Source: Candidatus Latescibacterota bacterium
Lineage (GTDB): Bacteria > Latescibacterota > UBA2968 > UBA8231
Length of the DNA stretch: 64,000 nt
Reading direction: 5' to 3'
Assembly (NCBI GenBank): GCA_965215195.1
Contig: CBDCDC010000002.1
Coordinates: 4,352,001 to 4,416,000 of the forward strand
Below are positions 1,654 through 20,753 of the stretch, in pieces. Each line of letters starts with the position of its first letter. The first letter of the stretch is position 1. The notes beneath the pieces are model-generated. The model searched no databases and was not told the DNA's origin. It saw only the letters and a list, made by a program, of their open reading frames with translations. The translations under genes and the position numbers were made by a program.

Positions 1654-1788
1654 AGGGCGTTTTCCTTGCTGTGATGTAAGTGCCGGATAAAAATAACAGT
1701 GCCCTCTGGCACAAAGGCAAATTGGCCACTAGGCGATAGTCTCGGTCCTAAGTACATCTATCCCGTCCGTTTATTGTGGAGGCTCACG

Positions 1789-2433: not shown

Positions 2434-2500
2434 CCACTAGGTCGGGTGTGGCCGCTCGTATTCGAGGGTTGGATAGTTGGAGGAAATCGTCTATGCAACT

Positions 2501-4255
2501 CTATCCAAAAGAGAGTTGCATCTGTTGATCATCTGGTCGAGTGCGAATAGATTGAGAGGAATTTTCAGTCATTCCTTTATCGCCAATGGCACTACACACT
2601 TCTCCCCAGTCGATGAAGTATTCGTCAAAATAGCGAACTGGATATTTACTGAATCTAATAATGTCCTCTCTATCGGGCCTGCGTCCCAGTTTGATAGCAA
2701 TCTCCTTGACTTCGATCTGTAGTGTTTTTTTAGGCACTTCGTACTTCTGTTTTTGTAGTCTTGCAACTCTACTGTTCTTTGCTTTTGGAGTAGTACCATT
2801 TTTTGCAAACGGATCCCTCCCTTTTTGCAGGTCTAAATGTCTCTGTTCGGCAATTGCATGATATTTAGCCGACAGTTCAATTCCAATGAATTTTCTTCCA
2901 AGCATCTCTGATGTTAAAGTCGTTGTACCTGCGCCGTTAAAAGGATCTAAAACGAGATCTCCTTCTTTGGTAAAGGTATGGATAAGTCGCTTCATCAGTG
3001 ATGGAGGTAGTTGACATGGATGATCAACTCTTTTTGAATTGTGCTTTAGCCTATGGATATCCCACCACAAATTTCCAATCGGCTGTCGGTCTGTAATTTT
3101 GTTTATATTTCTTTTTTTGATACAAGAGGTTCTAACGCAATACCATGGTTTGAGGCTCATGAAGTTTTGGGGAGTTCGCCAACTAGCTTTCTTTTCGTGA
3201 TTGGCAATTTCAATTGGCCGACCTTTACTAAAGCAAATTATTCCATAATGTGCCGGCATAATTTTTCTGATGGGTAAGCTCAATCCCTCCCAAACTATCC
3301 AATCTTGGTAATATAAAATGCTTCTCGCGAACGAAAAATGCCTGACGATCCAGAGAGGAATATTTATAATTGCAAGAGTCCGACTGGGTTTCAAAACTCT
3401 AGCTGATTCAGCTATCCATTGATCACACCATGAAAAGTAATTACTAATATCTTGGGCATCATTCCAGTTATCATATTTCTTTTTTATATTATATGGAGGA
3501 TCAGCAAAAATAAAATCTACGGAATTTTCAGGGATAGTTTTGAGGATATCTAAACAATCTCCGTTGAGTAAACGACTCCTGCCGGGGTTATTAATTATTC
3601 CGTTTGAAGAGCGGAATTTTCTCTTTTTGGAGAATGTAAGAAAGTTCCTGACATCGCAGTAAATAAGTTGGCTATAAGGTTCGTGCCCAAAGAGATCCGC
3701 TAGTCTTTCCAGAATAGCTCTTGGTGCTGTATCATTATCATAAGAAATATCGCGCCAAATATCAGACATAAGAGTCCCATAGGGGCTATAAATATGTTTC
3801 TTACCTCCGTAGTCCTTTGTTGTTTTGTTGCAGGCAGGACAGTACGTATATTCTATTTGAGTCTTGTTATGCTTCAAAGAACCCTTGTAACGGGTAAAAA
3901 CTAAGAGAGCAATATGGCCATCTGGCAAGGCCCCCAATCGCAGTATCTCTTGTTTGCGTTTGACAGCAATCCAAAGTTTGAAATAGACGCGGTTCTGAAG
4001 TTTTTCTATTATATAGCAAGCTATGTGAGGATTTGTCAAAAAACAAATTGTACTTTCTGCGGGCAATTTTTCAAGAAAATCATCGAAACCTTGCTTAAGA
4101 AATTCCACAGAAACTTTATCGTCGAGACCAATTTCTGTAGTCAAATGGAAAAGCCATACATCCGGCCGTAGTGACTTTGGCGATAATTTTTGAAAATTTT
4201 CAAATGTCCTTATTGATATATCTAAGGACTTGCAGTTTTCACTCCGGTGAGCCAT
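2501..4255 (-). CDS. Beta-class N6A/N4C DNA methyltransferase with an N-terminal degenerate MTase-like domain and a C-terminal helical repeat
   Basis: GDCLDIL...FADPPYN (motif IV) precedes HPCQLP...VLDPFNGAGTT (motif I), which is beta-class order. About 225 extra aa at the N-terminus. The C-terminal LGRRP...YF..W segment resembles the homing-endonuclease-associated repeat. Confidence 0.9.
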   Translation of the reverse strand: MAHRSENCKSLDISIRTFENFQKLSPKSLRPDVWLFHLTTEIGLDDKVSVEFLKQGFDDFLEKLPAESTICFLTNPHIACYIIEKLQNRVYFKLWIAVKRKQEILRLGALPDGHIALLVFTRYKGSLKHNKTQIEYTYCPACNKTTKDYGGKKHIYSPYGTLMSDIWRDISYDNDTAPRAILERLADLFGHEPYSQLIYCDVRNFLTFSKKRKFRSSNGIINNPGRSRLLNGDCLDILKTIPENSVDFIFADPPYNIKKKYDNWNDAQDISNYFSWCDQWIAESARVLKPSRTLAIINIPLWIVRHFSFARSILYYQDWIVWEGLSLPIRKIMPAHYGIICFSKGRPIEIANHEKKASWRTPQNFMSLKPWYCVRTSCIKKRNINKITDRQPIGNLWWDIHRLKHNSKRVDHPCQLPPSLMKRLIHTFTKEGDLVLDPFNGAGTTTLTSEMLGRKFIGIELSAKYHAIAEQRHLDLQKGRDPFAKNGTTPKAKNSRVARLQKQKYEVPKKTLQIEVKEIAIKLGRRPDREDIIRFSKYPVRYFDEYFIDWGEVCSAIGDKGMTENSSQSIRTRPDDQQMQLSFG

Positions 4256-4256
4256 T

Positions 4257-5291
4257 TTAGTTACCTCCTTCCATAGTTTCTGCTAGACGTCTAATATCGC
4301 CGTCACTAAGATTGATGATACAGTCGCTGTACTTGATTAAGTTCTTCACAAAAGAGCGGCGTTCAAAATTGCCAGCACCATCAACTACATACGCAATTTT
4401 ATGCCCTTTTTCACGAAGAAGCCTTTGTCTATCAGGAGCGGATTGAGCTTTCCTTTCTACTACACTGTTTGTAGTAAATTGAAAACTCACTTCAATACCC
4501 CAATAATTACCATTAGGACTTTTACCGACGATGTCAAATTTTGTATCTGTTCTACCTTCGGTCTGGCTGATGCTTGGAATCGTGGTTTGTGAGAAATCCC
4601 AACTCGGGAGATATTGAGCCAACCGCTCTTTTACATAATTCTGAGCGAGGTAACCCATCCTGTTGGACGTTGCACCTCCAGTAATTCGACTAACTAAGAT
4701 ATATCTTTCTTTAATATATTTTTCCAACCTTGGTTTGTCGCCAATCATTGAACCAATAATACATTTGTCTTCGATTTCCTTTGGTAAAAAATCATTCGTT
4801 GACAAACCACCAAATAAAATCAGGGTACTTACGTCAACAATAGAGTCTGTAAGGTCAAAACGTTGCTGGATTCCCTCTCCGTCAAGCCCTAAGCTGGGAT
4901 TACTCCACCTTCTGCCACAAAAAAGAGATTTCATCTCGTAATCGTAATTTTTGCCACGAAAGGTGAATTTGAAATTCTCGTACTTAAATTTTTCTGGAAG
5001 CTCTGCTGCAAAGCGTTTTAAGTTTTCTCCGCTGATATCGGATAAAATGCAAAGATGTTTTAAAAAAAGATTTGGATAGAGATCTTCAACAAAACCTAAA
5101 ATCTTAGTCCAATCATAAGGAGCTTTATATCCAAGTTGGAGCATACTTATAAAACTATCTTGCGTTTTAAGAAGCAGAGGGATAATACTAGAATTCTTCT
5201 CTTGCTTGGCGATTTCAGATGGCCAATAGATTACAGCATTTTCCTTCAGTTCTTCTACTGTTTCAGGATTAGGCATTACCAGATTCTCCAT
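4257..5291 (-). CDS. Type II restriction endonuclease, BanI/HgiCI-like (PD-(D/E)xK)
   Basis: N-terminus EELKENAVIYWP...SIIPLLLKTQDSFIS...PNLFLKHL closely resembles R.BanI/R.HgiCI as recalled. Catalytic-like KFDIV...IEVSFQ. Lies 1 bp upstream of the MTase. Low GC. Confidence 0.78.
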   Translation of the reverse strand: MENLVMPNPETVEELKENAVIYWPSEIAKQEKNSSIIPLLLKTQDSFISMLQLGYKAPYDWTKILGFVEDLYPNLFLKHLCILSDISGENLKRFAAELPEKFKYENFKFTFRGKNYDYEMKSLFCGRRWSNPSLGLDGEGIQQRFDLTDSIVDVSTLILFGGLSTNDFLPKEIEDKCIIGSMIGDKPRLEKYIKERYILVSRITGGATSNRMGYLAQNYVKERLAQYLPSWDFSQTTIPSISQTEGRTDTKFDIVGKSPNGNYWGIEVSFQFTTNSVVERKAQSAPDRQRLLREKGHKIAYVVDGAGNFERRSFVKNLIKYSDCIINLSDGDIRRLAETMEGGN

Positions 5292-5391
5292 TTTCAGGCA
5301 AAAGTAGGGCCGATAATGACCTGACTACTGGGTAATATAGCCAATATCTAATAGCGTGGAAATATGAATTAGTGCCGCGGCTGAGGGCAAC

Positions 5392-7281
5392 TTACAGCAG
5401 CTTGCACCCGGCTAGTTCCTTGGTACTCAGGCGGATGCCGCCGGCGCGGAGCCCGCGCACGGGATATTGGCCGATGGGGAAGACCTCGTTGAGCTTGCGC
5501 AGGCGCGGCTTGGGCTTGTAGGCGAGGGCGATCTTTTTGTTAGAATCCGTGGTCAGCTTGAGCACTTTGCACTCGGCCGGCACGAGATCGTAGCTACGGC
5601 CTAAGATGAACTTGTCGATTGTGCAGCGCTTGATGTAGGAGGCACCGGCCTTGTCCTTATAGACGATGCTGAAAACTAGGTCCTTGTCGATCAAGCCGCA
5701 GTGGAGCAAGCCCTTGCCGACGAAGAGCTTGTCCGGCGCGTGGACGACCGAGTAGGTGCCGCCCTTGCGGATGGCGAGCACAGGGTCGTAGAGCGATACG
5801 TCGAAGAGGACAGTGCCGTTGATTTGGTGGCCGAGATAGCCGGTCTTTTTGTCGTAGCGGAGCTTGAGGTTGCGGTTGGCAGCCGAGCGCACATCAACTC
5901 TTTTGAGCTCCACGATTTTGGTGCGGCGCGGGAACTGGCTGCGGTAGCGACTGATGAGGTCTTGCAGGAAGGAGATGGTGTAGGGAATGATGCTGTCTAA
6001 ATGGCCCTTGATCTCGCGCAGCCGGCCGCGGATCTGGGTCATTTCCCTTTGGGCGCGGTTGGTGTCGTAGAGCGAGATGCGGCGGATTGGTATGGCGAGC
6101 AAGGCGTCGATGTCGTCGGCAGTAACGGCGCGTTTGATTTGCGCGGCAAAGGGCGCAAGCCCCGCACGCACGGCCGCGGCGATCTGCTTGGGGGAGGCTT
6201 CGCTCTCAATGGCCTCGTACACGCGGTTGGCAATGAAAATTTGCTCCAAGGTGCGGGCGTGGAGCCGGTCGTTGAGCTGGTCGGCTTCGAGGTGCAGCTC
6301 GGCCTTGAGAATATCGACGAGGCGATCGACGTTGTACTGCAAGACTTCGGTCGCGCTCATGACTTGGGGCTTGTCCTGCTGGTTGATCAGCATCAGGTGA
6401 GTCGAAATCGACATCTCGCAGTCCGTGAAGGCGTAGAGCGCATCCACGACCTCCTCGGTGTACGTGCCGCGCGGCAGTTTGATCTCGATCTCAACCTCTT
6501 CGGCTGTGTAGTCGCTGATGGTGCCGATCTTGATTTTGTTTTTGCGCACCGCGTCTTCTATGGAAGCGATAAGCTGTTCGGTGGTGGTGCCGAAGGGAAT
6601 CTCGCGGATGAGGATGCGCTTGGGGTCGGAAGCGTCGAGCTTGGCGCGGACTAAGACCTTGCCGTTGCCGTCGTTGTACGTCGAAAGGTCGGCGAGCCCG
6701 CCGGTGGGAAAATCCGGGCGAATGGCAAAGGGCCGGTCCTGCAGGTAAGCGACTTGGGCCTCTAGAAGCTCGATGAGGTTGTGCGGCAGGATCTTGGTGG
6801 CCATGCCGACGGCAATGCCCTCAGCTCCTTGGGCGAGGAGCACCGGGAGCTTGGCGGGAAAAACCACGGGCTCCTCGTTGCGGCTGTCGTACGAGGGAAC
6901 GCGTGGGGTAAGCGCTTTGTTGAAGAGGGTTTCCTTGGCCAAGGGCGTGAGGCGGCACTCAATATAGCGTGCGGCAGCGGCTTCGTCGCCCGTGTAGATG
7001 TTGCCAAAATTGCCCTGTTTCTCAATGAAAAGGTCCTTGTTGGCGAGGACGACTAAGGCCCCGTAGATCGACTGGTCGCCGTGCGGGTGGTACTGCATGG
7101 TTTGGCCGACCACATTGGCGACCTTGTGGAACTTGCCGTCGTCGATCTGCTGGAGAGCGTAGAGGATGCGCCGCTGGACGGGCTTGAACCCGTCGTCGAG
7201 GTGCGGGATGGCGCGATCCTTGATGTAGTAAGCGGCGTATCTGAGGAAGTAGCTCTCGTATAAGCGGTCTATATAGGCCAT
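5392..7281 (-). CDS. parC: DNA topoisomerase IV subunit A
   Basis: [29 protein letters not shown] and AAARYIE (active-site Tyr). Short CTD with no GyrA box. Confidence 0.9.
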
Positions 7282-9104: not shown

Positions 9105-9671
9105 TGTTTCTAATAATATAGTAGAATGAGCCGCGCCTCAGTGGGGGAGGGACGCGACTGGCGGACAATGGGAGCGATTAAAATGAAGGAGAAAACAGAA
9201 GCATAGGAGGAGAGCAGAAGGGGTAGCCACTCTCCTTGGTGCAACTGCTAGTTCAAGAAATTCTCCGTTTGCTTAATATAGTGAACATAAATGCAGTTGT
9301 CAATCAAATGCAGGTGTGGGCAGAAGCGGTGATTTAGCGACTTTGCTGTATCTTTTGGGAACGGTAGTGTTACAGAGGTGATACACTTTGGCGTATCGAC
9401 TGGTTGGAGCGGAAGCTGTGGCGACAAAAAATCTGGATTGGCTAACCTACCTAATTTCAAGGAGTTAGCGAATACCAACGACGGCTCAGTCTATCTGGTG
9501 TGCTTCTTGGCACGTTTTTCGCTTTTGTTCCCGCTGAGGCCGAGACCTCAGTCGTGCTTCAAACCATCTTCAACTAGAGGTATATTTCAATTGCTCGCAT
9601 CTATAAGAGAAAGATTGGCATCAAGGTTATTGTGGTGGAGCAGTGGCCTCAGAAGATCCTCGGAAACCAAT

Positions 9672-12059
9672 ATGTTGGACCGTAGCACATTATCTATTCT
9701 AGTCCTATTCCATGGATGTAGCTCCGTTCATACTAGACGAGCTTGTGAGATCGCCCGACAATTACGACACCGAGGCTACGAGGTTCGGCTAGCAGGAGAT
9801 GGGCCTTATGCGGAGCAATTTTCCCAAAAGGGAGAAGAAATATGCAGTGTTGAAACATTGCCTCTAGATATTCACCGAGACCAGACTGAGCTATTGGACT
9901 ATAGGTCGTGCGATACTGAATGGATCGATTCTTGCGTAAAATCCGAACGGTCTTTGATTGAGGAGTACAAGCCCGATCTAATTATACACTCCTTGAAACC
10001 AACGGCTTCAGTTGCAGCATATTTGGAAGGTGTTGACGAAGTTGAAATAATCCAAGGATACGATCAACCAGGCGGTCATCTTCCTCTTCAGACCCTATCT
10101 GTACTACCATCGCGAGATACGTTTGCAGAATACTTAAAAAGCAAAGTCTGCGAAATCAAAAAAAGAAATAAGTACTTCCTAATCGCCGATATACCCGATC
10201 TATATCCTACACTAGAGTTTAGTGCTAGTGGATTCCATTATATAGGACCTCTTTTGCCAGCCATGAGAAAAAAAAGAGACGGACGGAAGGTGATTCGCAA
10301 ACGGGGTACACCATTTCCTACCGTCTATATAAAGGATCCCAAAAATCTCCTAAGAGAAGATATACTTAGACAAGTTGAGTCCGGGACAAAGATGCCTTAT
10401 CGCTTACTAGTAGAATCTACCAGAGGAGTAAAATGGTCTAAAAGCCGTGTAGAGTTTGTCGACGAAAGATATAGAGAGCCACCATGGGAAAGAATACGTA
10501 TAATAGTTGGAGATTTAGATATAGAGACTCTATACAGTGCTTTATCTCATGGAGTTTTGCCTGTCGGTATAGCTACTACTTTAGACCAAGAGCTCCATCT
10601 CGATAGACTCGAAGCAGTTAATCTGGGTTTCAAGATAGATCCAGATATGTTTAGCTATCATATTGTTACACAAGCAGTAGGAAAAATACTAGATACTTGG
10701 GATAAAATGGAGGTTCGATTAGAACACGTTGTTAAGATCTTGGAAAGATGGTATACAAAAGATGTCGTCGCTGACTGGGTAGATAATTATTTTGTGAACC
10801 GGCATACGGTACTCCGTTACGATCCCAGATTTCTAGTAAGCGAAAACGAATTCTTACAGCAACTCGACGGCACTACTCCCTCCACGCTATCAATTGAGTC
10901 ACTACGTAAAATGCTACAGCAAGGTATTCAAAGAGGAATACCTCACTGGCGACAGGGCAATCAGTACTTCTTCGACATAATAGATTCTTGGAACTGGCTT
11001 TACGAAAAGGAAGATCGATTTTTCGAGGCTGAATACAGAGCCTGTGATCAAAGGCGGAGTACCTTCTTCGATATAGATGAAATGGGCAACATACGTTCAA
11101 AATCTCATATTCAACGCTATAAAGTAACCTACTCTTACGACATACACCTCACTGAAAAATCGGATCAACAGTTAAGAGCTTTTATACCATATCCTTTAGA
11201 GACAGAAGAACAAAAGGCAGTTAATCTAATTAGCTGTTTCCCAGAGGATATGAGAGACTATTTACGCGGCAAGTTTGGATTCTTCTACGCGTACCCTTTC
11301 ACTGCAAATTCGGCAAATTTTTCATATACTTGCGAACTTGAAGTCAGTAAGTACAATGCTAAAGGTAGGGGTGAGTACATCCTCCCAGAGTGGGAGAGAT
11401 CGAGATATTTGTACACCGGCGAAGGCTTGGCAAAACTTCCAGAGTTAGATCAAATGCTCTCTGAGATACTCGAAGCATCTGCGTCCTGTGATAAAAAAGA
11501 ACTAGCTTGGGCCTTCTACAGCAAACTAGTCAGAACCAAAAAATTCAGAAAGACTAAACCACCTGCGATGGGTCTAGTTGATAGTTCAGCTACCTTACTA
11601 AATAGTAGCGGTGGTAATTGTATTCACTTTGCCAGAACCTTTATATCTCTGTGTCGAATGGTAGGTATTCCTGCTCGGGAGAGATGTGGAACCTTGTTAG
11701 GATACCCAATTTCTGAAAAGGTGTACGAATACAGCAGTATAAACGAGCCTATAATAGGCCACACATGGGCCGAAATCTACCTAGAAGAAGCAGGCTGGAT
11801 ACCCGTCGAATTCCTCAGTGTGGCTATCGGCGAAGTTTCTATAAACGAATACAATATCAAGGATCCTAAATTAAAAAAATATATAAAGCAAAATAATCGC
11901 TCTTTTGAATCTTATTATTTTGGCCATTTAGATAACCAACGACTCATGTTTTCCAATTCTGTGAAGACACTACCTCTATGCTTAACAAAAGGTGTGGATG
12001 AATGGGAACCTCTTCCAAACATACAATGCCAATATCGTATGAGAGTGGAGTGCATATAA
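9672..12059 (+). CDS. Fusion protein: GT-B (GT1/GT28-like) glycosyltransferase + wHTH-like linker + transglutaminase-like domain
   Basis: HTRRACEIARQLRHRGYEVRLAG, YKPDLII, HYIGPL and ALSHGV...DQELH are GT1/MGT-like. C-terminal GGNCIHFA...LCRMVGIPAR...HTWAEIYLEEAGWIPVE is the TGase core. ATG at 9672 is preferred over the track start at 9378. Confidence 0.75.
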   Translation: MLDRSTLSILVLFHGCSSVHTRRACEIARQLRHRGYEVRLAGDGPYAEQFSQKGEEICSVETLPLDIHRDQTELLDYRSCDTEWIDSCVKSERSLIEEYKPDLIIHSLKPTASVAAYLEGVDEVEIIQGYDQPGGHLPLQTLSVLPSRDTFAEYLKSKVCEIKKRNKYFLIADIPDLYPTLEFSASGFHYIGPLLPAMRKKRDGRKVIRKRGTPFPTVYIKDPKNLLREDILRQVESGTKMPYRLLVESTRGVKWSKSRVEFVDERYREPPWERIRIIVGDLDIETLYSALSHGVLPVGIATTLDQELHLDRLEAVNLGFKIDPDMFSYHIVTQAVGKILDTWDKMEVRLEHVVKILERWYTKDVVADWVDNYFVNRHTVLRYDPRFLVSENEFLQQLDGTTPSTLSIESLRKMLQQGIQRGIPHWRQGNQYFFDIIDSWNWLYEKEDRFFEAEYRACDQRRSTFFDIDEMGNIRSKSHIQRYKVTYSYDIHLTEKSDQQLRAFIPYPLETEEQKAVNLISCFPEDMRDYLRGKFGFFYAYPFTANSANFSYTCELEVSKYNAKGRGEYILPEWERSRYLYTGEGLAKLPELDQMLSEILEASASCDKKELAWAFYSKLVRTKKFRKTKPPAMGLVDSSATLLNSSGGNCIHFARTFISLCRMVGIPARERCGTLLGYPISEKVYEYSSINEPIIGHTWAEIYLEEAGWIPVEFLSVAIGEVSINEYNIKDPKLKKYIKQNNRSFESYYFGHLDNQRLMFSNSVKTLPLCLTKGVDEWEPLPNIQCQYRMRVECI

Positions 12060-14572
12060 TGGACATAAGTGTAATTGTAGCCACATATAATCAGAAAGAA
12101 CGTCTCCGTCTCGTGTTGAGAGGTTTAGAAAGTCAGAGTATTCCAAACGATCACTTTGAAATACTAGTGGTTGACGACGGTTCAACAGACGGTACTGGAG
12201 CAATGCTGAAATCACTGAAGATGCAGAATCTCGAAGTTGAATCTTTTGAAACGAACCAAGGCCGCTGCCGAGCACGGAACAAAGGAATTGAACGGGCACA
12301 TGGTTCGTTAGTCGTTTTTTTAGATGGAGATGCATTACCGGCTCCGAATCTACTCCAGTGCTACTTAGAAGCCTATAAAGAGAATGGTCAGAAATCAGTA
12401 TTTTGTGGGTACCAGTATGTCCTTCCCAATCTAGAGTATTTCCAAGATCCTCAGACAGGTTCTCTCTTGGATATCTCGCTGCCTTATTCACTGCGTCGGC
12501 ACTTGGCTCTACATCGAGATAAGATGATTGTCACAGAGGATATGGTATGCAATGAGTTCGATAGTATTATTGAAAAAGCAGTAGAAGGAGGCTATCCGTT
12601 TGAAGCAGTTCGTACTATGCAGCGAGAATCTCTCGATCTTTACGAAACTGTCGCAGAACCGGCACTAGGCTGGATTGGATTATACCCTCACAATGTGGCC
12701 ATACCGTTAAAGCTACTAGAAAAAGTAGGGAAATTCGATGATACCATACCTTTTTGTGAAGGATGGGAACTTGGCTATCGCCTAAAGGCGGCAGGTGGAC
12801 AATTTATCAGTGTCCAAGCCTCTTCTTACCACCTATACCATCATCATAATTTCTCCGATCCTGAGAAAGCAAAAGCCGAAAGAGTGAAGCGATATGCTGC
12901 GGTTGAGTACATAGCCTGCAAACATAGCGACCCCTTGGTGCGTCTGATCCACTTCTGGTGGGCACATCTGTGGCCTAATCCTTTTCTTCCAGAGGAGTCA
13001 GTTATAGACAGTCTGATTGAATTTGACCATATCTACCGAACTATTTCTGAAACAGATAGAAAAGAATACCAAGAGATCCTAGATGCACTTCCACAGCTTG
13101 ACCTAGATACCGAGCTTCCTGCTCATTGCAAATTTAGCTCTGCTGAAAGTAATGTATCCGAACTAGTTGACCAGCAAGATGGTCCTGAAGAATGGGAAAT
13201 CATTTTAGCCTCTGCTGACGAGCACTGGCAAAACGGTCGTCTAGAATCCGCCTTATCCCAAATCGAACTAGCAAAAGAAGTTAACCGTCTTCGGGGTGGT
13301 ACAACTATAGGATTAGCTAACATACTGATCTCCCAAGGCAAAGTTTACGAGCTGAAAGGCGAATTAGACAAGGCAAATCAATGTTATGATGAGGCCATAT
13401 CAATTTTTTCACAAACTGAGGATGATGAGAGTACAAGGAAGCTAGCTGTAGGATATACCTGCAAAGGGTTTATCACACAGCTACAAGGAAATCTCACTGA
13501 GGCTGCTGATTTTTATATAAAAGCACAGAGCCTTAACAAAAAAATAAATTGTCGAGAAGATTATGCCTTAGTTACTAGCAACTTGGGTACTGTGCATTTA
13601 CTAAAAGGCGACTTGAATTCAGCAGAGAAACTTTACGAGGAATCTATAGCTATTTACAAAGAAATTGGAGACTCCGAAGGAATTGCTAGCCAGTACAATT
13701 CACTTGCAAATTTAAGAAAAATTCAAGGCCGTATTTACGAAGCACGTACTCTACTGGAACAGGCTATTGGTATAGATAAAAAGATGGATAGAAAAGAGGG
13801 ATTGGCATTGCATTATGGATTATTTTCCTCGATACACCTTCTAATGGGAAATATGGAAGAAGCACTAGAGTGCGGCAAAGCTGCTTTAGAAGCTAATCAA
13901 AGCTTGGCGGATGAAAAGGGAAAAGCGTACTCATATAGAATACTAGCGAATGTGCATTTCTATCGTGGGGATTTTCCTCTGGCAGAATCTTATCTGCATC
14001 ATTCTATAAGCCTATTTGAACGTATAGGTATGTCATCCGATGTGATTGAGTGTTATTTATCTCTTGGAAAATTGTACGCTCATAGTAAAAAATTTGATAA
14101 AGCCAAGGAATTCCTATGCAATTACCTACGCCTTGCTCCAGACTCGCCTAACCAGCAAACTATTGCTGCAGCCCGAGCTACTTTAAGTCTCGTATATATC
14201 CAATGCGGACAATATGAAGACGCGTACCAAGAGCAGAAGACTGCACTGGGGATATACGAAGCCGAGGACGATGAAAAGGGCACCGCCTACGGATTTGCTA
14301 GTCTAGGCGAGATACATCAGCTTAGAGGACAATGGATTGAAGCAGAATCTTGTTATAGTAGAGCTCTGTCTATATGCAAGAAGATAGGTGACGAACTCGG
14401 ACAAGGGCTTGCCTATATGGGGATGGGAGATGTGGCTGCCCAAAAAGAGTCAAAAGCAAGAGCTGTCGCTTTGTGGACGATGGCATCAAAAATTTTCGCC
14501 GGAATGAATATGTATAACTACGCTGACCGAGTCGAAGAAAAGATAAAGACTGTTCAAGGATCAGAACTATAG
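12059..14572 (+). CDS. GT2 (GT-A) glycosyltransferase with a long C-terminal TPR array
   Basis: ISVIVATYN, VVDDGSTDGT, ARNKGI, VVFLDGD (DxD), GKFDD and EGWELGYRL, followed by many helical TPR-like repeats. ATG overlaps the upstream stop (TAATG). Confidence 0.88.
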   Translation: MDISVIVATYNQKERLRLVLRGLESQSIPNDHFEILVVDDGSTDGTGAMLKSLKMQNLEVESFETNQGRCRARNKGIERAHGSLVVFLDGDALPAPNLLQCYLEAYKENGQKSVFCGYQYVLPNLEYFQDPQTGSLLDISLPYSLRRHLALHRDKMIVTEDMVCNEFDSIIEKAVEGGYPFEAVRTMQRESLDLYETVAEPALGWIGLYPHNVAIPLKLLEKVGKFDDTIPFCEGWELGYRLKAAGGQFISVQASSYHLYHHHNFSDPEKAKAERVKRYAAVEYIACKHSDPLVRLIHFWWAHLWPNPFLPEESVIDSLIEFDHIYRTISETDRKEYQEILDALPQLDLDTELPAHCKFSSAESNVSELVDQQDGPEEWEIILASADEHWQNGRLESALSQIELAKEVNRLRGGTTIGLANILISQGKVYELKGELDKANQCYDEAISIFSQTEDDESTRKLAVGYTCKGFITQLQGNLTEAADFYIKAQSLNKKINCREDYALVTSNLGTVHLLKGDLNSAEKLYEESIAIYKEIGDSEGIASQYNSLANLRKIQGRIYEARTLLEQAIGIDKKMDRKEGLALHYGLFSSIHLLMGNMEEALECGKAALEANQSLADEKGKAYSYRILANVHFYRGDFPLAESYLHHSISLFERIGMSSDVIECYLSLGKLYAHSKKFDKAKEFLCNYLRLAPDSPNQQTIAAARATLSLVYIQCGQYEDAYQEQKTALGIYEAEDDEKGTAYGFASLGEIHQLRGQWIEAESCYSRALSICKKIGDELGQGLAYMGMGDVAAQKESKARAVALWTMASKIFAGMNMYNYADRVEEKIKTVQGSEL

Positions 14573-14627
14573 TGTAATATCATAAGGCGATACCTTCGCA
14601 AAAGGCGAGTAATAATTCCTATCAAGT

Positions 14628-15173
14628 ATGACACTTTGTAAAAGTAAATTAACAATTGGAGCGGCTATAATATTAGTCATTTTTTTTGCTGCTACCTTGC
14701 AATTAATCGCCGTGTTCGTTACGAATGAAAGCATATACCGTAACGCGATGGCGTGGTTGAAAGGTGCGGAATACGAAGGAACGGAAGGAGTCGTTCTACA
14801 GACACGTAAGATGAATTGTGGTCCTGCATCTCTTAAAATGGTCTTGGATAGCCTAGGTATAGACCAAGAACTTACAGATATTGAAGACATGATTAGATTG
14901 GACGAGACAGGTTCTTCTTTATTCGACTTGATGAAATACGCCGAAAGTCAAGGAGTACATGCTGAAGCTTGGAGGCTAAATATAGATGACCTAGAGAGCA
15001 AACCACTTCCTGTGGTAGTCTTTATTGAGGATGATCACTTTGCTGTGCTGGACCAGATCAACGAACACGGTGAGGTCATCTTGCGAGATCCAGCCATCGG
15101 CAGGCTCAGAATTAGGAAATGGGCATTCAACCGTATATGGAAAGGAGAGACTTTGATATTGACAAAAAAATAA
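14628..15173 (+). CDS. Stand-alone C39 (double-glycine leader) peptidase with an N-terminal membrane anchor
   Basis: QTRKMNCGPASLKMVL (Gln/Cys), DHFAVL (His) and LRDPAIG (Asp). Hydrophobic residues ~8-31. No ABC transporter domains. Confidence 0.85.
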   Translation: MTLCKSKLTIGAAIILVIFFAATLQLIAVFVTNESIYRNAMAWLKGAEYEGTEGVVLQTRKMNCGPASLKMVLDSLGIDQELTDIEDMIRLDETGSSLFDLMKYAESQGVHAEAWRLNIDDLESKPLPVVVFIEDDHFAVLDQINEHGEVILRDPAIGRLRIRKWAFNRIWKGETLILTKK

Positions 15174-15175
15174 AA

Positions 15176-15204
15176 CATTCACCATGTGGAGGTAGGGGTT
15201 GTCA
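15176..15204. repeat. Left arm of an imperfect inverted repeat flanking the precursor gene
   Basis: cattcaccatgtggaggt... is the reverse complement (17/18) of ...acctctacatggtgaatg at 15562-15579. Confidence 0.8.
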
Positions 15205-15231
15205 TCTTCTCTTTTAAGAAAGGAGAACATC

Positions 15232-15504
15232 ATGACCAAACTTATCAACACGAAAGGTGTAACAGCTCTGGCGACAGCCTTGGGCTTATGCGCCTACAGT
15301 ATCGCACCTAGCAACAGTGCCATCATCTCCAAGCCTATTACGCCTTCTGAGGCTCGGGACATCAAGGGTGGCATTCTCCCTTGGGCACTGGTAGGTTGGG
15401 CCATAGCAGCTGACGTCGCACTCACAGTTGGTGCGATGTCCCTTTACGGGAATCTAGAGACTTCAAGGCAACAACGAGAAGGATCTTACGCCCGCAACCC
15501 GTAA
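15232..15504 (+). CDS. Putative RiPP/bacteriocin precursor (90 aa): signal-like N-terminus, double-glycine site, 43-aa core
   Basis: Strong RBS AAGGAG. ...ITPSEARDIKGG|ILPWALVGWAIAAD... matches the LSxxELxxIxGG consensus. Directly downstream of the C39 peptidase gene. Confidence 0.78.
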   Translation: MTKLINTKGVTALATALGLCAYSIAPSNSAIISKPITPSEARDIKGGILPWALVGWAIAADVALTVGAMSLYGNLETSRQQREGSYARNP

Positions 15505-15550
15505 GAAGACTGAAAAACAACAAACAAAACCTGTAAGAAGCTAACCTAGG

Positions 15551-15579
15551 TGAAACCCGCAACCTCTACATGGTGAATG
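15551..15579. repeat. Right arm of the inverted repeat flanking the precursor gene
   Basis: tgaaacccgcaacctctacatggtgaatg pairs with 15176-15204. Confidence 0.8.
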
Positions 15580-15582
15580 GAC

Positions 15583-15616
15583 GAGCTACCAGTCTTTTCA
15601 TCGAGACTGGTAGCTC
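15583..15616 (+). terminator. 13-bp perfect hairpin downstream of the precursor (terminator or 3' stabiliser)
   Basis: gagctaccagtct-tttcatcg-agactggtagctc. No U-tract follows, so it is not a canonical intrinsic terminator. Confidence 0.5.
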
Positions 15617-15857
15617 AAAATCTTCGCTAACTAAGAGAAGGACTCTACGACTTTGAATGCCTTAGTGTTTCTTTTAGGGATGATTCAGCCTATCGCCTAT
15701 AAGGCGAGGGTCGCTTTAGTTGGGCTGAATGGTCTTTTGCATGTTGAGCAATTTTCGGTGTCATGCTATGGACTATGAGGTTTTACCACACTATCTTAAG
15801 GTATTGGTTCGGACTTGAGGGGTGTACTTCAAGCATTTAGAAGAGGCAGGTGTACTC

Positions 15858-16661
15858 ATGAAAAAAATCCGTACAATGGACCAACACATTTATCCCTTAT
15901 TTACCAGAAAGTTTGAAAATATACGATGTAGGACATTTTCTACCTTTCTACTAGCTATTTTTATGTTCTTCTTTTTTCGCTATACTGTCGATACTATACT
16001 TAATCTATTCGCTTTGAGCGACTACCTTCTCATATTATTATGTACTATTCCTTATGTTTTACTTATTTTAATTGTCGTGGCATTCTCTAAGATAGAGAAA
16101 CAGGATCTGACCATCCAAACCTTGGGATTATCCCCTCAAATTCCCAGAAGATCAAAAAGATTCGTTTTGACGTTTATTTTTTTATCGTTAGTATCCGGAG
16201 TAGGTATATTGGTCTTTTTCCTTTACATGAAGCTCCAAGGGATTGATATCCACTTAATACACCCCAACCCTACTCTAATACCTTGGACTGAGGAAGCCGA
16301 CTGGGATGAAAAATTTCGTACTATATTTCTCCTTATTATTCCATATTCAGTTCGTGCTTTATTGATTGCCCCTGTTATAGAGGAGGCATATTTTACAGGC
16401 CTGATTTTCCCTGCTCTAAGGAATCGATTGGGGTTCGTTCTCGGCTTCACTATTACCGCTTTTCTCTTCAGCTATCACCATTACTCTCCGTTTTTAGAAG
16501 GACATCTAAGGGAATTTATCATTATGTTTATGTCACAAAGTCTTTCATTTTTTTTCTATCAGGGTACGCGCTCTCTTTATCCTTCTATAATATACCATTC
16601 TTTACGCAATATGTCAGTTTTGGCTATTGAACTCTCAGCCTTTATCCCAACTCAGTCCTAA
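15858..16661 (+). CDS. CPBP/Abi (CAAX-type) intramembrane metalloprotease
   Basis: APVIEEAYFTG, FSYHH and IIYHSLRN motifs with multiple TM helices. Start could be 15822, 15858 or 15876. Confidence 0.82.
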   Translation: MKKIRTMDQHIYPLFTRKFENIRCRTFSTFLLAIFMFFFFRYTVDTILNLFALSDYLLILLCTIPYVLLILIVVAFSKIEKQDLTIQTLGLSPQIPRRSKRFVLTFIFLSLVSGVGILVFFLYMKLQGIDIHLIHPNPTLIPWTEEADWDEKFRTIFLLIIPYSVRALLIAPVIEEAYFTGLIFPALRNRLGFVLGFTITAFLFSYHHYSPFLEGHLREFIIMFMSQSLSFFFYQGTRSLYPSIIYHSLRNMSVLAIELSAFIPTQS

Positions 16662-16786
16662 TTAGCACAGGAAAAACCTTCGGTGCCGTTTTAAGCTTAT
16701 GGTTAGTCTAGTATATATCAAATACGTTCTTAGTGAATACGATGTTATGAAAATAAATCCATCTCTTTTAATAAGGAGGATAACTC

Positions 16787-17488
16787 GTGGAAGCCGCACT
16801 CCAGACTGAAATCGGCCTCGTCGGCCGCATGATCCGGATCTTCTACGCACCCAGCAAGACCTTTGAATCCTTCGCTCATAAGCACAGCACTGCCGACTGG
16901 CTTATGCCCGCCATTCTGAGCACCGTAGTTGCCACAATTGCTGCCGTGCTCGTCATGCCCGTCACGACTGAGTTCAATCAGGAGGCCATACAACAGCGTA
17001 TTCAGGGTATGTCTGCTCAACAGCGAGAGGCAGTAGAGCAATCCCAAATCGAGGGTATGATACAGGCCATTACGCTGATCTCCACACCTATTGTGCTTTT
17101 CATTTTTCTTTTTCTTTTTGCCGCGTCTTGCCTACTGATGGGCAAATTACTCGGCGGCCTACTCTCCTACGGCCAAGTCCTAACCATCGTAGCCTATGCG
17201 GGGTTGATCGCTATTCCCCAACATATTGTCAAGACATTGCTAATATTGGCCAAAAAGACACCGATGGTGCAAATGGGCTTGGGGGTGTTCCTCTCCGAAG
17301 AGGCCCTACAAAGCTTCAGTGGTCGCTTATTGTCTCTCATTGATCCCTTTGTCGTTTGGAGCGTTGTGATTACTGGTCTCGGTCTGTCCATTGTCGGACA
17401 GTTCGATCGCAGCAAAGCCTACACTGGGATTGGTGTCATAATGATTGTTTGGTTTTCCTTCGCTGCTGCCCTAGGTAGTATCGGCTAG
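16787..17488 (+). CDS. Yip1 family membrane protein
   Basis: RIFYAPSKTFE...WLMP N-terminus, about 5 TM helices and IDPFVVW motif. RBS AAGGAGG before GTG. Confidence 0.78.
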   Translation: MEAALQTEIGLVGRMIRIFYAPSKTFESFAHKHSTADWLMPAILSTVVATIAAVLVMPVTTEFNQEAIQQRIQGMSAQQREAVEQSQIEGMIQAITLISTPIVLFIFLFLFAASCLLMGKLLGGLLSYGQVLTIVAYAGLIAIPQHIVKTLLILAKKTPMVQMGLGVFLSEEALQSFSGRLLSLIDPFVVWSVVITGLGLSIVGQFDRSKAYTGIGVIMIVWFSFAAALGSIG

Positions 17489-17489
17489 T

Positions 17490-17705
17490 CTTTCGGAGCA
17501 TGCCCTTGAACTGTTCGCCAAAGAGGAAATCCGCGATCCCTTCCAACCCTCTTGGGGCTACGACGAAGCCTGCGCTCGATTGGGTCTCATGCGTCAGGAG
17601 GCCGGCGACATCGAGGGAGCGCGGGAAGCCTTTGTCAAAGCCCTCGAAGTGAATCCCAACAACGGCTGGGTAAAAAACCACTTATTACCGGAATTGGAGC
17701 GCTAG
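17490..17705 (+). pseudogene. Start-less 3' remnant of a TPR protein paralogous to 19968..20753
   Basis: Frame from 17499 reads HALELFAKEEIRDPFQPSWGYDEACARLGLMRQEAGDIEGAREAFVKALEVNPNNGWVKNHLLPELER*. This aligns with RAAELFAQEEPTDPIHPAWG...AFAKALEIDPDFGWVKYVLLPELEK. In-frame stop upstream at 17472. Confidence 0.75.
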
Positions 17706-17711
17706 TACGCA

Positions 17712-19946
17712 ATGAATAAAAGATGCACCGCTCGACAGGCCGAGATCGTCCTGTTCTGCGTTTCCTTACTCGCTGGGCAGACCTTTGCCCAGAGCAAGGC
17801 TTTCGTACAGGGGCAGGTCGTCGACGAAACCGGACAGCCGGTCGCCTTTGCCAACGTACAAATCATCGACACTACCGACGGCTCAGTAACAGGCCGCGAC
17901 GGCCGTTTTGTCTTTTCTACCCGGCACCTTGGATCACGCGACCTGCACGCCACCTTCATCGGCTTTGAACCTGCCCGGCAGACCCTACACTTGATCGCGG
18001 GCGACACCACACTGGTGCGCTTGGTGCTGCGGCACTCCCTCATTGAACTCGGTGAAACCGTCGTCACAGTTAGCACCTACACCACCGGGGAGGATGAGAC
18101 CGTCACCCTCTCGCCTTTAGATGTATTGACGACGCCTGGGGCTTCGGCCGATATTTTTCTCGCGGTCAAAACCTTTCCCGGCGTTGCTACCGTACATGAC
18201 GGTGCCGGTCTTTTTGTCCGCGGGGGCGACGTGAGCGAGACCGTCGTTTTGCTCGATCAAGCTACGGTGGTGCATCCCTACAGATACGAATCGCCCACCG
18301 GCGGAGTATTCGGCACGATTCCCTCCTTTATGGTGCAGGGCACGGTTTTTTCCACAGGTGGATTCTCCGCCCGCTATGGCAATGCGCTTTCCGCGGTGCT
18401 GTCCATGGAGAGCCTAAACATGCCCGTGCAACGGAGCTATAGGCTCGGTTTGGGCCTCGCTGCCGGCTCTGTGGGCCTCGACCTGCCTCTTATTGACGAT
18501 AAGCTTGGCCTGCGCTTTACGGGCAATCGCAGCTTTACCGATCTCATGCTTCGCGTCAACGGTCACCGCAGCGAATTCACTACCACTCCACGCGGCCACG
18601 ACGGCAATCTCAACCTAGTGTACAAATACTCACCGACCGGACGCCTCAAACTCTTCAGCTTCAACGCGGGCGACCGAATCGGTGTGCGCGTGGTCGAGCC
18701 TTCGTTTGACGGCCAGTACCGAGACCGTACCGATAACTACTTGCACAATGTTCAGTGGACGGATGTATGGGCCGATTGGTTCATCCAGACCAGTGCCTCG
18801 CTCAACCGGCACACGGCCCGGCGGCAGTTGGGCAGCCTAGACCTGACCCCCCGCGACTGGACCGGCAAAATTCGCACGGACTGGGAACGCGCGCTCGGAG
18901 CTTTCGGGATCATGCGCCTCGGTACCGAACTGGAGCACGCTGACAACAGCTTCGTGGGCAGCATTCCTCAGGACGATGTTCTCGACCCCGAGGCAGAGAC
19001 ATTTGAACTCGACACTTCCTACAGTGCCCGGCGCACTGGTGCCTACTTTGAGGTTGATTTCAAGCCCGGGCGTCGCATCGTCGCCAATGTCGGTATGCGC
19101 GCCGACCACCACAGCTTGAGCGACGATTTTGTCCTAGACCCGCGCCTGTCTGCGCGATACCAGTTTTCCGCGAACACAAACGCTCGGCTCGCTTGGGGCA
19201 TCTATCACCAATTCCCCGCCCCATTTGAATACAACCCCACCAGCGGCAACCCCAATCTAGGGCCCCAACGCGCCCAACACTGGGTAGGCGGCTTGCACCA
19301 CGAACGCGGACAATTCCTAGTACGGCTGGAGGCTTACTACAAACCCTACCGCAATCTCGTCCTGGATCACCCCGACCTAAACCTTGCAAACGCGGGTAAA
19401 GGCCGGGCTTCTGGTGTTGACCTCTTTTGCAAGTACGGCGCTTTTCTCAATACGCGCTTGAGCGGGTGGATAGCCTACAGTCTGCTGCGATCGCGCCGAT
19501 TGCAGGTGCGCCACCTAGGGTTTGAGATGCTCCGCGAAGAAGCTCCTTCTCCGTTTGATATTACGCACAACCTGACCTTGGTCACAAAGGGGCAGATCGT
19601 CTACGCCCTCAGCGGCGGCCTGACTCTGAGATACGCCACCGGACGCCCCATCACCCCAATCGTCGATGCCGTTTCCGTAGCAGATAAAAGCTACTACCTG
19701 CCCGTAGAAGGACCTGTCGGCTCAGAACGGCTGCCGTCCTTTCAACAGATAGATGGGCAATTGAGCTACGTGCATTTCTTTGGCAGCGGTCACCAAGCGG
19801 TCTTCTACTTGGCGGTCAACAACCTGCTCAACCGCGCCAATGTGCTCGACTATGATTACAGCATCGACTATGCTCAGCGCCAGCCACGCACCGCCATCTT
19901 TCGCCGCTCCATTTACTTTGGCACCACCGTCTCTCTGAACTATTGA
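17712..19946 (+). CDS. TonB-dependent receptor
   Basis: Signal peptide, carboxypeptidase-regulatory-like domain (GQVVDETGQPVAFANV), plug (FPGV...VRGG...GGFSARYGNALS), and a barrel ending NNLLN...SLNY. Confidence 0.9.
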   Translation: MNKRCTARQAEIVLFCVSLLAGQTFAQSKAFVQGQVVDETGQPVAFANVQIIDTTDGSVTGRDGRFVFSTRHLGSRDLHATFIGFEPARQTLHLIAGDTTLVRLVLRHSLIELGETVVTVSTYTTGEDETVTLSPLDVLTTPGASADIFLAVKTFPGVATVHDGAGLFVRGGDVSETVVLLDQATVVHPYRYESPTGGVFGTIPSFMVQGTVFSTGGFSARYGNALSAVLSMESLNMPVQRSYRLGLGLAAGSVGLDLPLIDDKLGLRFTGNRSFTDLMLRVNGHRSEFTTTPRGHDGNLNLVYKYSPTGRLKLFSFNAGDRIGVRVVEPSFDGQYRDRTDNYLHNVQWTDVWADWFIQTSASLNRHTARRQLGSLDLTPRDWTGKIRTDWERALGAFGIMRLGTELEHADNSFVGSIPQDDVLDPEAETFELDTSYSARRTGAYFEVDFKPGRRIVANVGMRADHHSLSDDFVLDPRLSARYQFSANTNARLAWGIYHQFPAPFEYNPTSGNPNLGPQRAQHWVGGLHHERGQFLVRLEAYYKPYRNLVLDHPDLNLANAGKGRASGVDLFCKYGAFLNTRLSGWIAYSLLRSRRLQVRHLGFEMLREEAPSPFDITHNLTLVTKGQIVYALSGGLTLRYATGRPITPIVDAVSVADKSYYLPVEGPVGSERLPSFQQIDGQLSYVHFFGSGHQAVFYLAVNNLLNRANVLDYDYSIDYAQRQPRTAIFRRSIYFGTTVSLNY

Positions 19947-19967: not shown

Positions 19968-20753
19968 ATGCGACGCGTTCTGCTCTCACTAATTTTCATT
20001 TTCTCGCCCGCTTACTCCGCCTTCGCCCAATCGGTTGACAGTCTTCTCGTCAGTGGAAAACAGATGCTGGAAGCCGGTGAAAACGAGCGTTCCCTCGATG
20101 CGATGTATGCGGCGCGGGCGATGTTCGAGCGCACCTTAGCCGATACCAGCTTGGCCGCGTGGGGACACTACTACATCGCCTTGGCCGATTACCGCATCGT
20201 CGACCTCCTATTAGCCGCAGGCAAAAAAAACAAAGACGCGGCTTCTGAGCATCTCAAAGCCGCTGTCGAGCATTTGCAAGAGGCCACCCGGCTCGATCCT
20301 CAAGCCGCCGAAGCTTATGCTCTGCTGTCGAGCGTGTACGGACGACAGATCGGCCTCAACCCGGTCAAGAGCATGGTCTTGGGCTCCAGAGTAGGGAAGG
20401 CCATCAAAAAAGCTATGCAGCTCGCCCCCGACAATCCGCGTGTGGTGCTGAGCGCGGCCATCAGTGATTTCAATACCCCCAAAATGTTCGGTGGAAGCAA
20501 AGAAGAGGGCCTGCAAGGATTCCAGCGTGCGGCCGAACTATTCGCCCAAGAAGAGCCGACCGATCCCATCCACCCCGCATGGGGACACAGCCGCACGTAC
20601 GCTTGGCTCGGCATCGCTTACCAGGACCGCGGCGAACTGGAGCAGGCGCGAGCGGCCTTTGCAAAGGCGCTTGAAATCGATCCAGATTTTGGTTGGGTCA
20701 AGTACGTGCTGCTGCCCGAATTGGAGAAAGCCAATTCACCGGATGCGCCGTGA
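19968..20753 (+). CDS. Exported TPR protein
   Basis: Signal peptide (AFA-Q) and TPR-like repeats (AEAYALL, AYQDRGELEQARAAFAKALEIDP). Confidence 0.82.
   Translation: MRRVLLSLIFIFSPAYSAFAQSVDSLLVSGKQMLEAGENERSLDAMYAARAMFERTLADTSLAAWGHYYIALADYRIVDLLLAAGKKNKDAASEHLKAAVEHLQEATRLDPQAAEAYALLSSVYGRQIGLNPVKSMVLGSRVGKAIKKAMQLAPDNPRVVLSAAISDFNTPKMFGGSKEEGLQGFQRAAELFAQEEPTDPIHPAWGHSRTYAWLGIAYQDRGELEQARAAFAKALEIDPDFGWVKYVLLPELEKANSPDAP

Follow-up and report, generated by a model that had tools for sequence, protein, structure and literature searches.

A precursor gene behind a stand-alone C39 peptidase gene

The window described here is a 64,000-nt stretch of DNA from a Candidatus Latescibacterota bacterium (contig CBDCDC010000002.1). 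Our subject is a gene in it for a peptide precursor of 90 amino acids (aa), which lies 58 nt downstream of the gene for a stand-alone cysteine peptidase of family C39. Both genes are part of a low-GC block at about 9569-17494 (guanine-cytosine (GC) content of about 0.36-0.50 compared with about 0.55-0.68 outside), the bounds of which are the ends of homology to congeners. This block, hereafter the island, encodes six products including the peptide (Table 1). A sequence-only reading of the precursor had proposed a two-stage leader, in which export by a Sec-type signal peptide is followed by a C39 cut at a double-glycine (GG) site outside the cytoplasm.

Table 1 Features of the C39-peptide island in window coordinates.
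Feature	Position	Strand	Description
GT-B-like/transglutaminase-core protein	9591-12059	+	Pfam Transglut_core E 2.1e-14; weak Glyco_trans_4_4; soluble
GT2-TPR protein	12059-14572	+	Pfam Glycos_transf_2 E 3.7e-26; TPR_12 E 8.5e-46; soluble, long TPR array
Stand-alone C39 cysteine peptidase	14628-15173	+	181 aa; Pfam Peptidase_C39 (PF03412) E 7.7e-28; basic N-tail, one transmembrane (TM) anchor
Shine-Dalgarno sequence AAGGAG	15220-15225	+	6 nt before the ATG; kept in 5/5 related loci
Peptide precursor	15232-15504	+	90 aa; in-frame ATG at 15232 within open reading frame (ORF) 15199-15504
Signal-like segment (residues 1-30)	15232-15321	+	Basic n-region, Ala/Leu-rich h-region of about 12-16 residues, Pro-containing c-region
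Double-glycine-type propeptide (residues 31-47)	15322-15372	+	Ends in IKGG; predicted C39 cut after G47
Product (residues 48-90) and stop codon	15373-15504	+	43 aa, Cys-free; hydrophobic helix, then variable polar tail
Stem-loop	15583-15616	+	In the 3' untranslated region of the peptide gene; -30.4 kcal/mol, z -7.5, 0/200 shuffles as stable
CPBP (Rce1-like) intramembrane protease	15822-16661	+	Pfam Rce1-like E 7e-12
Yip1-domain/YknW-like polytopic membrane protein	16787-17488	+	Pfam Yip1 E 8.8e-16

The precursor consists of a basic start, a 17-residue hydrophobic stretch, the sequence PSNSA, a stretch of 17 residues that terminates in IKGG, and 43 further residues that divide into a hydrophobic half and a polar tail. 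This layout had been described from the sequence-only reading, and the ORF, the conserved ribosome-binding site and a synonymous bias all agree with it. Between the window and L009 (L-numbers denote related loci compared with the window), synonymous and non-synonymous changes stand at 6:2 in residues 1-30, at 8:2 in residues 31-47 and at 6:9 in the core. Since the changes at the N-terminus are mostly synonymous, this segment is translated and constrained. Judging by these substitutions, the peptide ORF is real and under purifying selection, and a constrained leader combined with a variable core is the usual pattern of peptide precursors. An alternative TTG start at codon 17, which would delete the signal, was rejected, as it has no ribosome-binding site and the first 16 codons are kept with synonymous changes.

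A six-frame translation of the window (127,996 residues) contains the full double-glycine leader pattern (hydrophobic at -12, Glu at -8, hydrophobic or Ala at -7, hydrophobic at -4, then Gly followed by Gly, Ala or Ser) three times, the precursor site included. Because the pattern is this rare, its presence in a 90-aa ORF directly behind the sole C39 gene is not a matter of chance.

The untranslated stretch that follows the peptide gene (15505-15630) is highly conserved in the relatives L009-L011. It contains the stem-loop, which starts 78 nt past the peptide stop, has a stem of 14 bp and is retained in all three relatives, with paired changes in L011. A search of positions 15100-15900 against Rfam gave no match; the element is probably a terminator, attenuator or stabiliser.

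The only C39 peptidase of the genome is predicted to face the periplasm

The peptidase reaches 97.4 bits against the PF03412 profile, for which the cut-off is 22. Q58, C64, H137 and D154 are invariant in 19 aligned sequences and align with their counterparts in LahT150 (6mpz); the C39 literature assigns roles to the Gln (oxyanion), Cys, His and Asp of this family. The best solved structural relatives of the peptidase profile are the double-glycine proteases LahT150, PCAT1 and ComA. In a search limited to lengths of 99-317 aa, its 18 homologs measured 168-194 aa. As the protein has no fused ABC transmembrane and ATPase domains, it does not belong to the PCAT/AMS exporters. It is also the sole C39 domain match in the 6.1-Mb genome, which is 95% complete, and as there is no second C39 domain the genome has no peptidase-ABC exporter (PCAT). 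A Pfam scan detected no ABC gene within the island. The NCBIfam model for FapD is matched weakly (E 3.6e-11, far below its cut-off).

The 19-residue windows of the peptidase anchor score 1.45-2.81. Of 28 homologs compared, which are not mutually independent, 25 have an N-tail with a higher net positive charge than the 15-residue stretch behind the helix. According to the positive-inside rule the more positive flank of a membrane helix stays in the cytoplasm, and on this basis the catalytic domain is predicted to lie outside the cytoplasm, in the periplasm.

The precursor family carries a signal-like segment and a double-glycine site in series

An exhaustive single-sequence search with the precursor returned eight hits, of which five are true relatives, and a profile search led to 36 clusters at 90% identity. 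The family alignment comprises 37 rows (clusters), 30 of which are covered by the per-sequence figures for charge, hydrophobicity and Cys content. Three long single-sequence hits (P0022, P0024 and P0025) were left out of the family; P0025 was rejected as a repeat protein that is similar only around a 'GG-V/L-P' stretch. The genomes of 40 relatives contained no credible match to the peptide (best E 0.011, with internal stops), and a look-up in the ESM Atlas gave a best score of 0.87 and no named family.

The propeptide is the best conserved segment of the precursor. Ile at -12, Glu at -8 and Ala or Val at -7 are present in 37/37 clusters and Ile at -4 in 33/37. P35, I36, E40 and G46 are invariant in the alignment, and M1, A12, S23, P26, S33, A41, P50 and D61 nearly so. 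At the cut site, 32 clusters have GG, four GA and one GS. The sites accepted by C39 enzymes are given as G-G/A/S in the accessible part of PMC10885120, so the set found in the family is exactly the accepted one. Conservation of the GG-type motif among homologous precursors, on which the sequence-only reading depended, was thereby borne out in every cluster.

The N-terminus is equally uniform in character. Its charge is +2 or +3 and its best 12-residue hydrophobic window at least 1.76 in all 30 rows, and the best 19-residue window remains below 1.6, the usual TM threshold, in 22 of them, which indicates a short h-region and contrasts with the anchor of the peptidase. The family thus combines a basic n-region with an h-region shorter than a TM helix, as is expected of Sec (type I) signals. 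A lipoprotein reading of the sequence L-G-L-C was discarded on the lipobox rule, since the residue before the Cys is Leu or Phe, and the Cys itself is missing in some members. AlphaFold2 predicts helices at residues 3-24, 38-45 and 49-88 with a low mean predicted local distance difference test (pLDDT) of 63; the first helix is of low confidence, the second is short, and residues 51-80 reach 73-81.

Double-glycine leaders typically measure 15-30 residues and begin at the precursor's N-terminus. The precursor departs from this norm in that its leader is not N-terminal: the GG segment of 17 residues comes after some 30 residues of signal-like character. A signal-like N-terminus followed by a double-glycine site is seen throughout the family, and the alignment thus supports the predicted two-stage leader.

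In one metagenomic member, P0020 (121 aa), one signal-like N-terminus is followed by two tandem copies of the propeptide-plus-core unit, and P0020 thus has a GG site in each copy. It may represent a precursor with two cores or an artefact of assembly.

The core is constrained at two positions and the tail is hypervariable

Within the core, P50 is found in 36/37 clusters, and D61, which lies in the middle of the helix, also in 36/37 with a Glu in the remaining one. Cys is absent from the core in 29/30 rows. The tail is the least conserved part of the precursor. It falls into at least six unrelated types, is almost missing in some members, and keeps neither its Gln-Gln pair nor its Ser/Thr/Tyr positions across the family. 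The sequence-only reading had taken the tail for the site of modification. Because the tail is hypervariable this proposal found no support, and the candidate enzymes are missing from 3/4 sister-genus loci.

A C39-peptide-CPBP module recurs in two genera of the phylum

The same six-gene block occupies the same chromosomal site in L009-L011, where the flanking ParE/GyrB-like gene is 91-95% identical. Among the 31 genomes of the genus the island is present in three; in the other 28 the same flanks, namely the ParE/GyrB-like gene and a TonB-dependent receptor, do not enclose it. Across 168 genomes of the phylum, full-length stand-alone C39 genes are confined to this genus (3/31) and one sister genus (4/8). 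In other families of the phylum, C39 matches fall within open frames that measure about 340-1250 aa, most of them about 1000 aa, and that were not individually inspected.

All seven phylum genomes with a stand-alone C39 gene have a CPBP gene 3' of the peptide gene, and the order C39-peptide-CPBP is shared by the two genera at a C39 identity of 45-88%. One sister-genus locus, L097, contains both large enzymes as well as C39, peptide and CPBP, at 46-58% identity. The other three (L094-L096) contain C39, peptide and CPBP at native GC and are without the large enzymes. The constant module therefore consists of C39, peptide and CPBP, and the glycosyltransferase pair is optional. In L094 and L095, the ones that were scanned, an additional CPBP gene precedes C39, so that two CPBP genes flank the C39-peptide pair.

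Three further loci of the genus (L071 at G018:C1:2766000-2780000, L072 and L073) carry a different low-GC insert of about 8 kb at the island site. The only one scanned, that of L071, encodes ThiF-like, nitroreductase, ABC-2 permease, YcaO, CPBP and ABC ATPase proteins and corresponds to a peptide cluster of the thiazole/oxazole-modified microcin (TOMM) type. The locus has the look of a site at which peptide cassettes are exchanged. The contig with the L011 island is labelled as a Poribacteria metagenome-assembled genome (MAG), whereas L009 and L010 are labelled Latescibacterota; its ParE/GyrB-like flank is 91% identical to that of the window, and its label or binning may be wrong.

Distant C39 homologs are followed by signal/GG peptides with Cys-rich cores

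C39 homologs of 29-52% identity are found in contigs and metagenomes of Bacteroidota and Ignavibacteria. We considered 30 distant loci, namely those with a C39 homolog at E 1e-20 or better, two pairs of which are the same sequence from two collections. In 25 of them, a same-strand ORF that starts within 800 bp downstream combines a basic/hydrophobic N-terminus with a hydrophobic-x-G-[GAS] site. The density of such ORFs is 1.29 per kb there versus 0.040 per kb elsewhere in the same loci. The five misses have individual causes: L015 has GE at the site, L021 has signal and core in different frames, L023 contains a peptide that is evident on reading and was missed by the filter, and the contigs of L045 and L048 end shortly after the C39 gene.

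On reading, the distant peptides display clear signal-like N-termini, signal ends of the A-x-A type and Cys/Gly-rich cores. In all three distant loci scanned, the gene upstream of the peptidase encodes a membrane-anchored AhpC-TSA/Redoxin thioredoxin, of a type known for activity outside the cytoplasm. The disulfide-type enzyme, the Cys-rich cores and the signal peptides together argue for maturation outside the cytoplasm in these loci. The version in the window differs from the distant cassettes in its Cys-free core and in its link to CPBP and glycosyltransferases.

The Ignavibacterium MAG contig L019 holds two complete cassettes of C39 and signal/GG peptide at 627-6637. They are separated by a Yip1 gene, which follows the cassette, and by an 803-aa ORF (not scanned) with an N-terminus like that of the window's TonB-dependent receptor. 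The peptide cores of L019 have a four-Cys pattern, which suggests a disulfide-stapled helical hairpin.

Predicted export of the precursor followed by a cut outside the cytoplasm

The observations above establish a conserved and real gene, an invariant motif, an intact C39 peptidase that is the only one of its genome, and a gene order that recurs across lineages. From these we infer Sec export, an outward orientation of the peptidase, the cut and a biological activity. Overall, we consider it moderately probable that the 90-aa protein is a precursor with a two-part leader that undergoes Sec-type export and an outside C39 cut after G47 to give a small, exported, bacteriocin-like peptide. Residues 1 to about 30 would engage Sec, either as a cleaved signal or as a signal anchor, and would place the double-glycine segment on the periplasmic side of the inner membrane, where the anchored neighbouring C39 peptidase would recognise the 17-residue propeptide and cut after G47. 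The cut would release 43 residues, a hydrophobic helix free of Cys that ends in a polar tail, and this product would be the same with or without cleavage by signal peptidase I. The CPBP and Yip1/YknW-like proteins would most likely be self-protection or further-processing factors of a bacteriocin-like system, and the GT-B/transglutaminase-like and GT2-TPR enzymes optional accessories.

The order proposed in the sequence-only reading, Sec first and C39 outside, is favoured by comparison, that is, by the signal-like N-terminus, the GG-type site in 37/37 clusters, the outward-predicted C39, the absence of a PCAT and the layouts of the distant loci. Its export step is deduced from heuristics. The CPBP and YknW-like neighbours are in keeping with a bacteriocin-like role, and so is the locus, which looks like one where the island and a TOMM-type cluster replace each other. 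An antimicrobial function is plausible and is weakened by the neutral-to-acidic core.

Several observations weigh against export followed by an outside cut. Both orientations, that of the precursor and that of the peptidase, are derived from charge and hydrophobicity heuristics. In the subfamily of the window, -3/-1 residues for signal peptidase are not obvious: S-N-S before A30 fits, and the best site, S-I-A, is followed by Pro, which is disfavoured directly after a signal-peptidase site. The core has a net charge of zero or below in 29/30 rows, which is unusual for pore-forming bacteriocins, and its best 19-residue hydrophobicity window of 1.79-2.57 is TM-like, so that the product may be retained in the membrane and not secreted. 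There is no evident route across the outer membrane. The peptide also reaches none of the curated bacteriocin families; the best curated match is TIGR03949 (class IIb, lactobin A/cerein 7B), which covers only residues 43-65 at 13.0 bits and E 0.067, where the cut-off is 21.5 bits.

Complex prediction adds little in favour of the pairing. The C39 domain together with precursor residues 27-90 scored 0.60, compared with 0.00 for the best of three controls, with contact agreement of at least 67% in the runs and a partner pLDDT of at least 56. The mark used was reached by 58/80 solved complexes and by 2/110 mismatches; only 7 of the 80 solved complexes scored 0.60 or less, as did both passing mismatches. 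Since like complexes have already been solved, the pass may reflect likeness only. The model is therefore weak support for a pairing of C39 and precursor, and its weakness is a further point on the negative side.

The acidic or neutral core, the TM-like helix and the lack of an evident outer-membrane route are the reasons why a membrane-resident product is kept as the main rival. Under this alternative, the precursor would be a hairpin whose two helices lie in the membrane and whose tail is cytoplasmic, and C39 would cut the short periplasmic loop to leave a single-pass acidic helix with a regulatory or structural role. The tail would then be within reach of the soluble glycosyltransferase (GT) and transglutaminase-like enzymes and the helix within reach of CPBP. 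Besides the hydrophobicity and charge of the core, the Asp in the middle of the helix in 36/37 clusters agrees with such a product. Neither large enzyme has a TM-like window or a signal-like segment; a tail located in the cytoplasm would account for their access to a Sec substrate. The tail ends in NP in 5/5 loci with both large enzymes (the window, L009-L011 and L097) and in 0/3 without them, although this correlation compares only two lineages with one. According to the available part of 10.1101/2023.06.07.544157, CPBP enzymes cleave beside TM helices in C-terminal sorting signals. Yet the context of the locus is one of interchangeable peptide-toxin cassettes or cassettes for peptides that are synthesised on ribosomes and modified after translation (RiPPs), and look-ups in Pfam, NCBIfam and the ESM Atlas matched no known membrane-peptide family. 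Hydrophobic bacteriocin cores are, moreover, exported by Sec as well. We regard the membrane-resident hairpin as unlikely.

In a bolder variant, proteolysis of double-glycine leaders would have been separated from ABC export and relocated to the outer side of the inner membrane, and Sec export followed by C39 cleavage would be a general route in several Gram-negative phyla. Here it would free a membrane-embedded acidic helix with a cytoplasmic tail decorated by the soluble glycosyltransferase/transglutaminase-like enzymes and trimmed by CPBP, that is, a new kind of small membrane peptide and not a classical secreted bacteriocin. We give this combination a somewhat smaller chance than the hairpin itself.

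Classical processing in the cytoplasm is less probable again. The N-terminal stretch would then be no export signal, C39 would face inwards, and the cut peptide would leave by another transporter. In the accessible portions of PMC10885120 and PMC5557850, every double-glycine leader that has been characterised undergoes its cut at a peptidase-ABC exporter, on the cytoplasmic face, and the outward orientation of C39 is a prediction. This scenario is difficult to reconcile with the positive-inside pattern in 25/28 peptidases, with an island that has no ABC gene in a genome that has no second C39 domain, and with an N-terminal segment that is kept with synonymous changes. The distant relatives, with their clear signal-like N-termini, Cys-rich cores and membrane-anchored thioredoxins, also speak against it.

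That the conserved stretch of about 17 residues is itself the functional product, for instance a signalling peptide, with the C-terminal part as a disposable GlyGly-CTERM-like anchor, is very improbable: the propeptide is the best conserved segment, and the succession of GG, hydrophobic helix and polar/basic tail resembles a tripartite sorting signal (available part of 10.1101/2023.06.07.544157), but the conserved positions are those of C39 leader recognition (-12, -8, -7, -4, -2 and -1), a conserved leader with a variable core is normal for bacteriocin and RiPP precursors, and P50 and D61 of the core are constrained too (36/37 each).

Relation to known export and maturation systems

In the textbook scheme, double-glycine leaders are processed by peptidase-ABC exporters on their cytoplasmic face. 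With the PCAT/AMS proteins LahT, PCAT1 and ComA, the system in the window shares the peptidase fold, the catalytic Gln/Cys/His/Asp and the leader logic (-12/-7/-4, Glu at -8, G-G/A/S). It differs from them in having no ABC transporter, a 181-aa stand-alone and anchored peptidase that is predicted to face outwards, and a leader that follows a signal-like segment of about 30 residues. A periplasmic precedent is FapD of the Pseudomonas Fap amyloid system, described in the accessible part of PMC5557850 as a catalytically active C39 protein with a Sec signal and an undefined substrate. According to the same partial source the operon of FapD serves amyloid export and includes an outer-membrane channel, whereas C39 is partnered here by a 90-aa peptide that has a canonical GG site, and a channel gene is absent. 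The bacteroidetocins of Bacteroidales are Gram-negative GG-leader toxins that are encoded with a thiol oxidoreductase and a five-TM protein (PMC6671954, in part). As far as that text goes, they resemble the Cys-rich cassettes beside the distant C39 homologs.

Precursors with Sec signals are known from two other groups. Sec-dependent class II bacteriocins such as enterocin P use the general Sec pathway. Bufferins are RiPP precursors with Sec signals, which the available part of PMC12452194 calls highly unusual for RiPP precursors. Both groups have a signal peptide only and lack a second double-glycine propeptide and a C39 peptidase.

CPBP genes are known neighbours of bacteriocin genes (10.1101/2023.06.07.544157, and Kjos et al. 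2010 as cited in PMC8692603, both from partial texts). The module shares with such CPBP/Abi-linked loci the CPBP gene directly downstream of the structural peptide gene. It differs from CPBP sorting systems in having no prenyl- or Cys-based sorting motif. Glycocins of the sublancin type combine a GT2 enzyme, a GG leader and disulfide enzymes with a core hairpin stapled by two disulfides. The island shares with them a family-2 glycosyltransferase with a helical repeat domain beside a GG-leader peptide; unlike in glycocins, the core is without Cys pairs and the GT2-TPR enzyme is absent from three related loci. A closer kinship of the GT2-TPR protein with SunS and the glycocins was rejected, as no SunS-type entry appeared among 50 PDB hits.

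Our literature search, which had supplements and subscription journals outside its coverage, found no published case of a Sec signal combined with a double-glycine leader on a bacteriocin-like peptide. On FilA/FilB processing, the accessible part of the Acinetobacter Tol 5 fibre paper (PMC11784438) contained nothing relevant. If the favoured route of export and outside cleavage is correct, it suggests that a cut thought to occur inside the cell at an ABC exporter can also occur outside the inner membrane. Periplasmic C39 peptidases, so far represented by FapD with its undefined substrate, would then have clear peptide substrates with a predicted cut site, and a very simple two-gene module for export and maturation would exist. 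Genome-mining tools for bacteriocins and RiPPs rely on the link between GG leaders and ABC exporters; in that case a whole class of precursors would have been missed.

Neighbouring genes and boundaries of the island

The ORF of the GT-B/transglutaminase-like protein is listed from 9378. Its start is probably the TTG at 9591 or the ATG at 9672, and homology to the congener flank extends to about 9568. In the PDB the protein matches the protein-glutamine gamma-glutamyltransferase 6g49 (E 2.9e-4). Its ortholog in L097 is 56% identical and that of the GT2-TPR protein 57%, each at the same position as in the window. At 12057-12061 the stop of the transglutaminase-like gene shares one base with the likely ATG of the GT2-TPR gene, an arrangement that suggests that translation of the two large enzymes is coupled.

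Downstream of the peptide gene, the CPBP protein of the window could be either an immunity-type protein or a second processing enzyme. The Yip1 protein matches the NCBIfam YknW family at E 4.3e-18, which is below the cut-off. The TonB-dependent receptor at 17712-19946 was considered as an outer-membrane exit belonging to the island and rejected, as its GC is host-like, the island of L010 lacks it as a neighbour, and congeners that do not have the island do have the receptor.

At the right edge of the island, a 41-codon ORF (17580-17705) shares 56% identity with the last 41 residues of the TPR protein encoded at 19968-20753, and L009 carries the same relic. This copy may mark the insertion junction. 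Elsewhere in the same genome, outside the window, the locus L070 (G000:C2:4133000-4147000) contains a second Yip1 gene immediately followed by a gene for a HlyD-family adaptor, together a YknW/YknX-like pair. About 7 kb past this pair lies a low-GC CPBP paralog with 77% DNA identity to the CPBP gene of the window.

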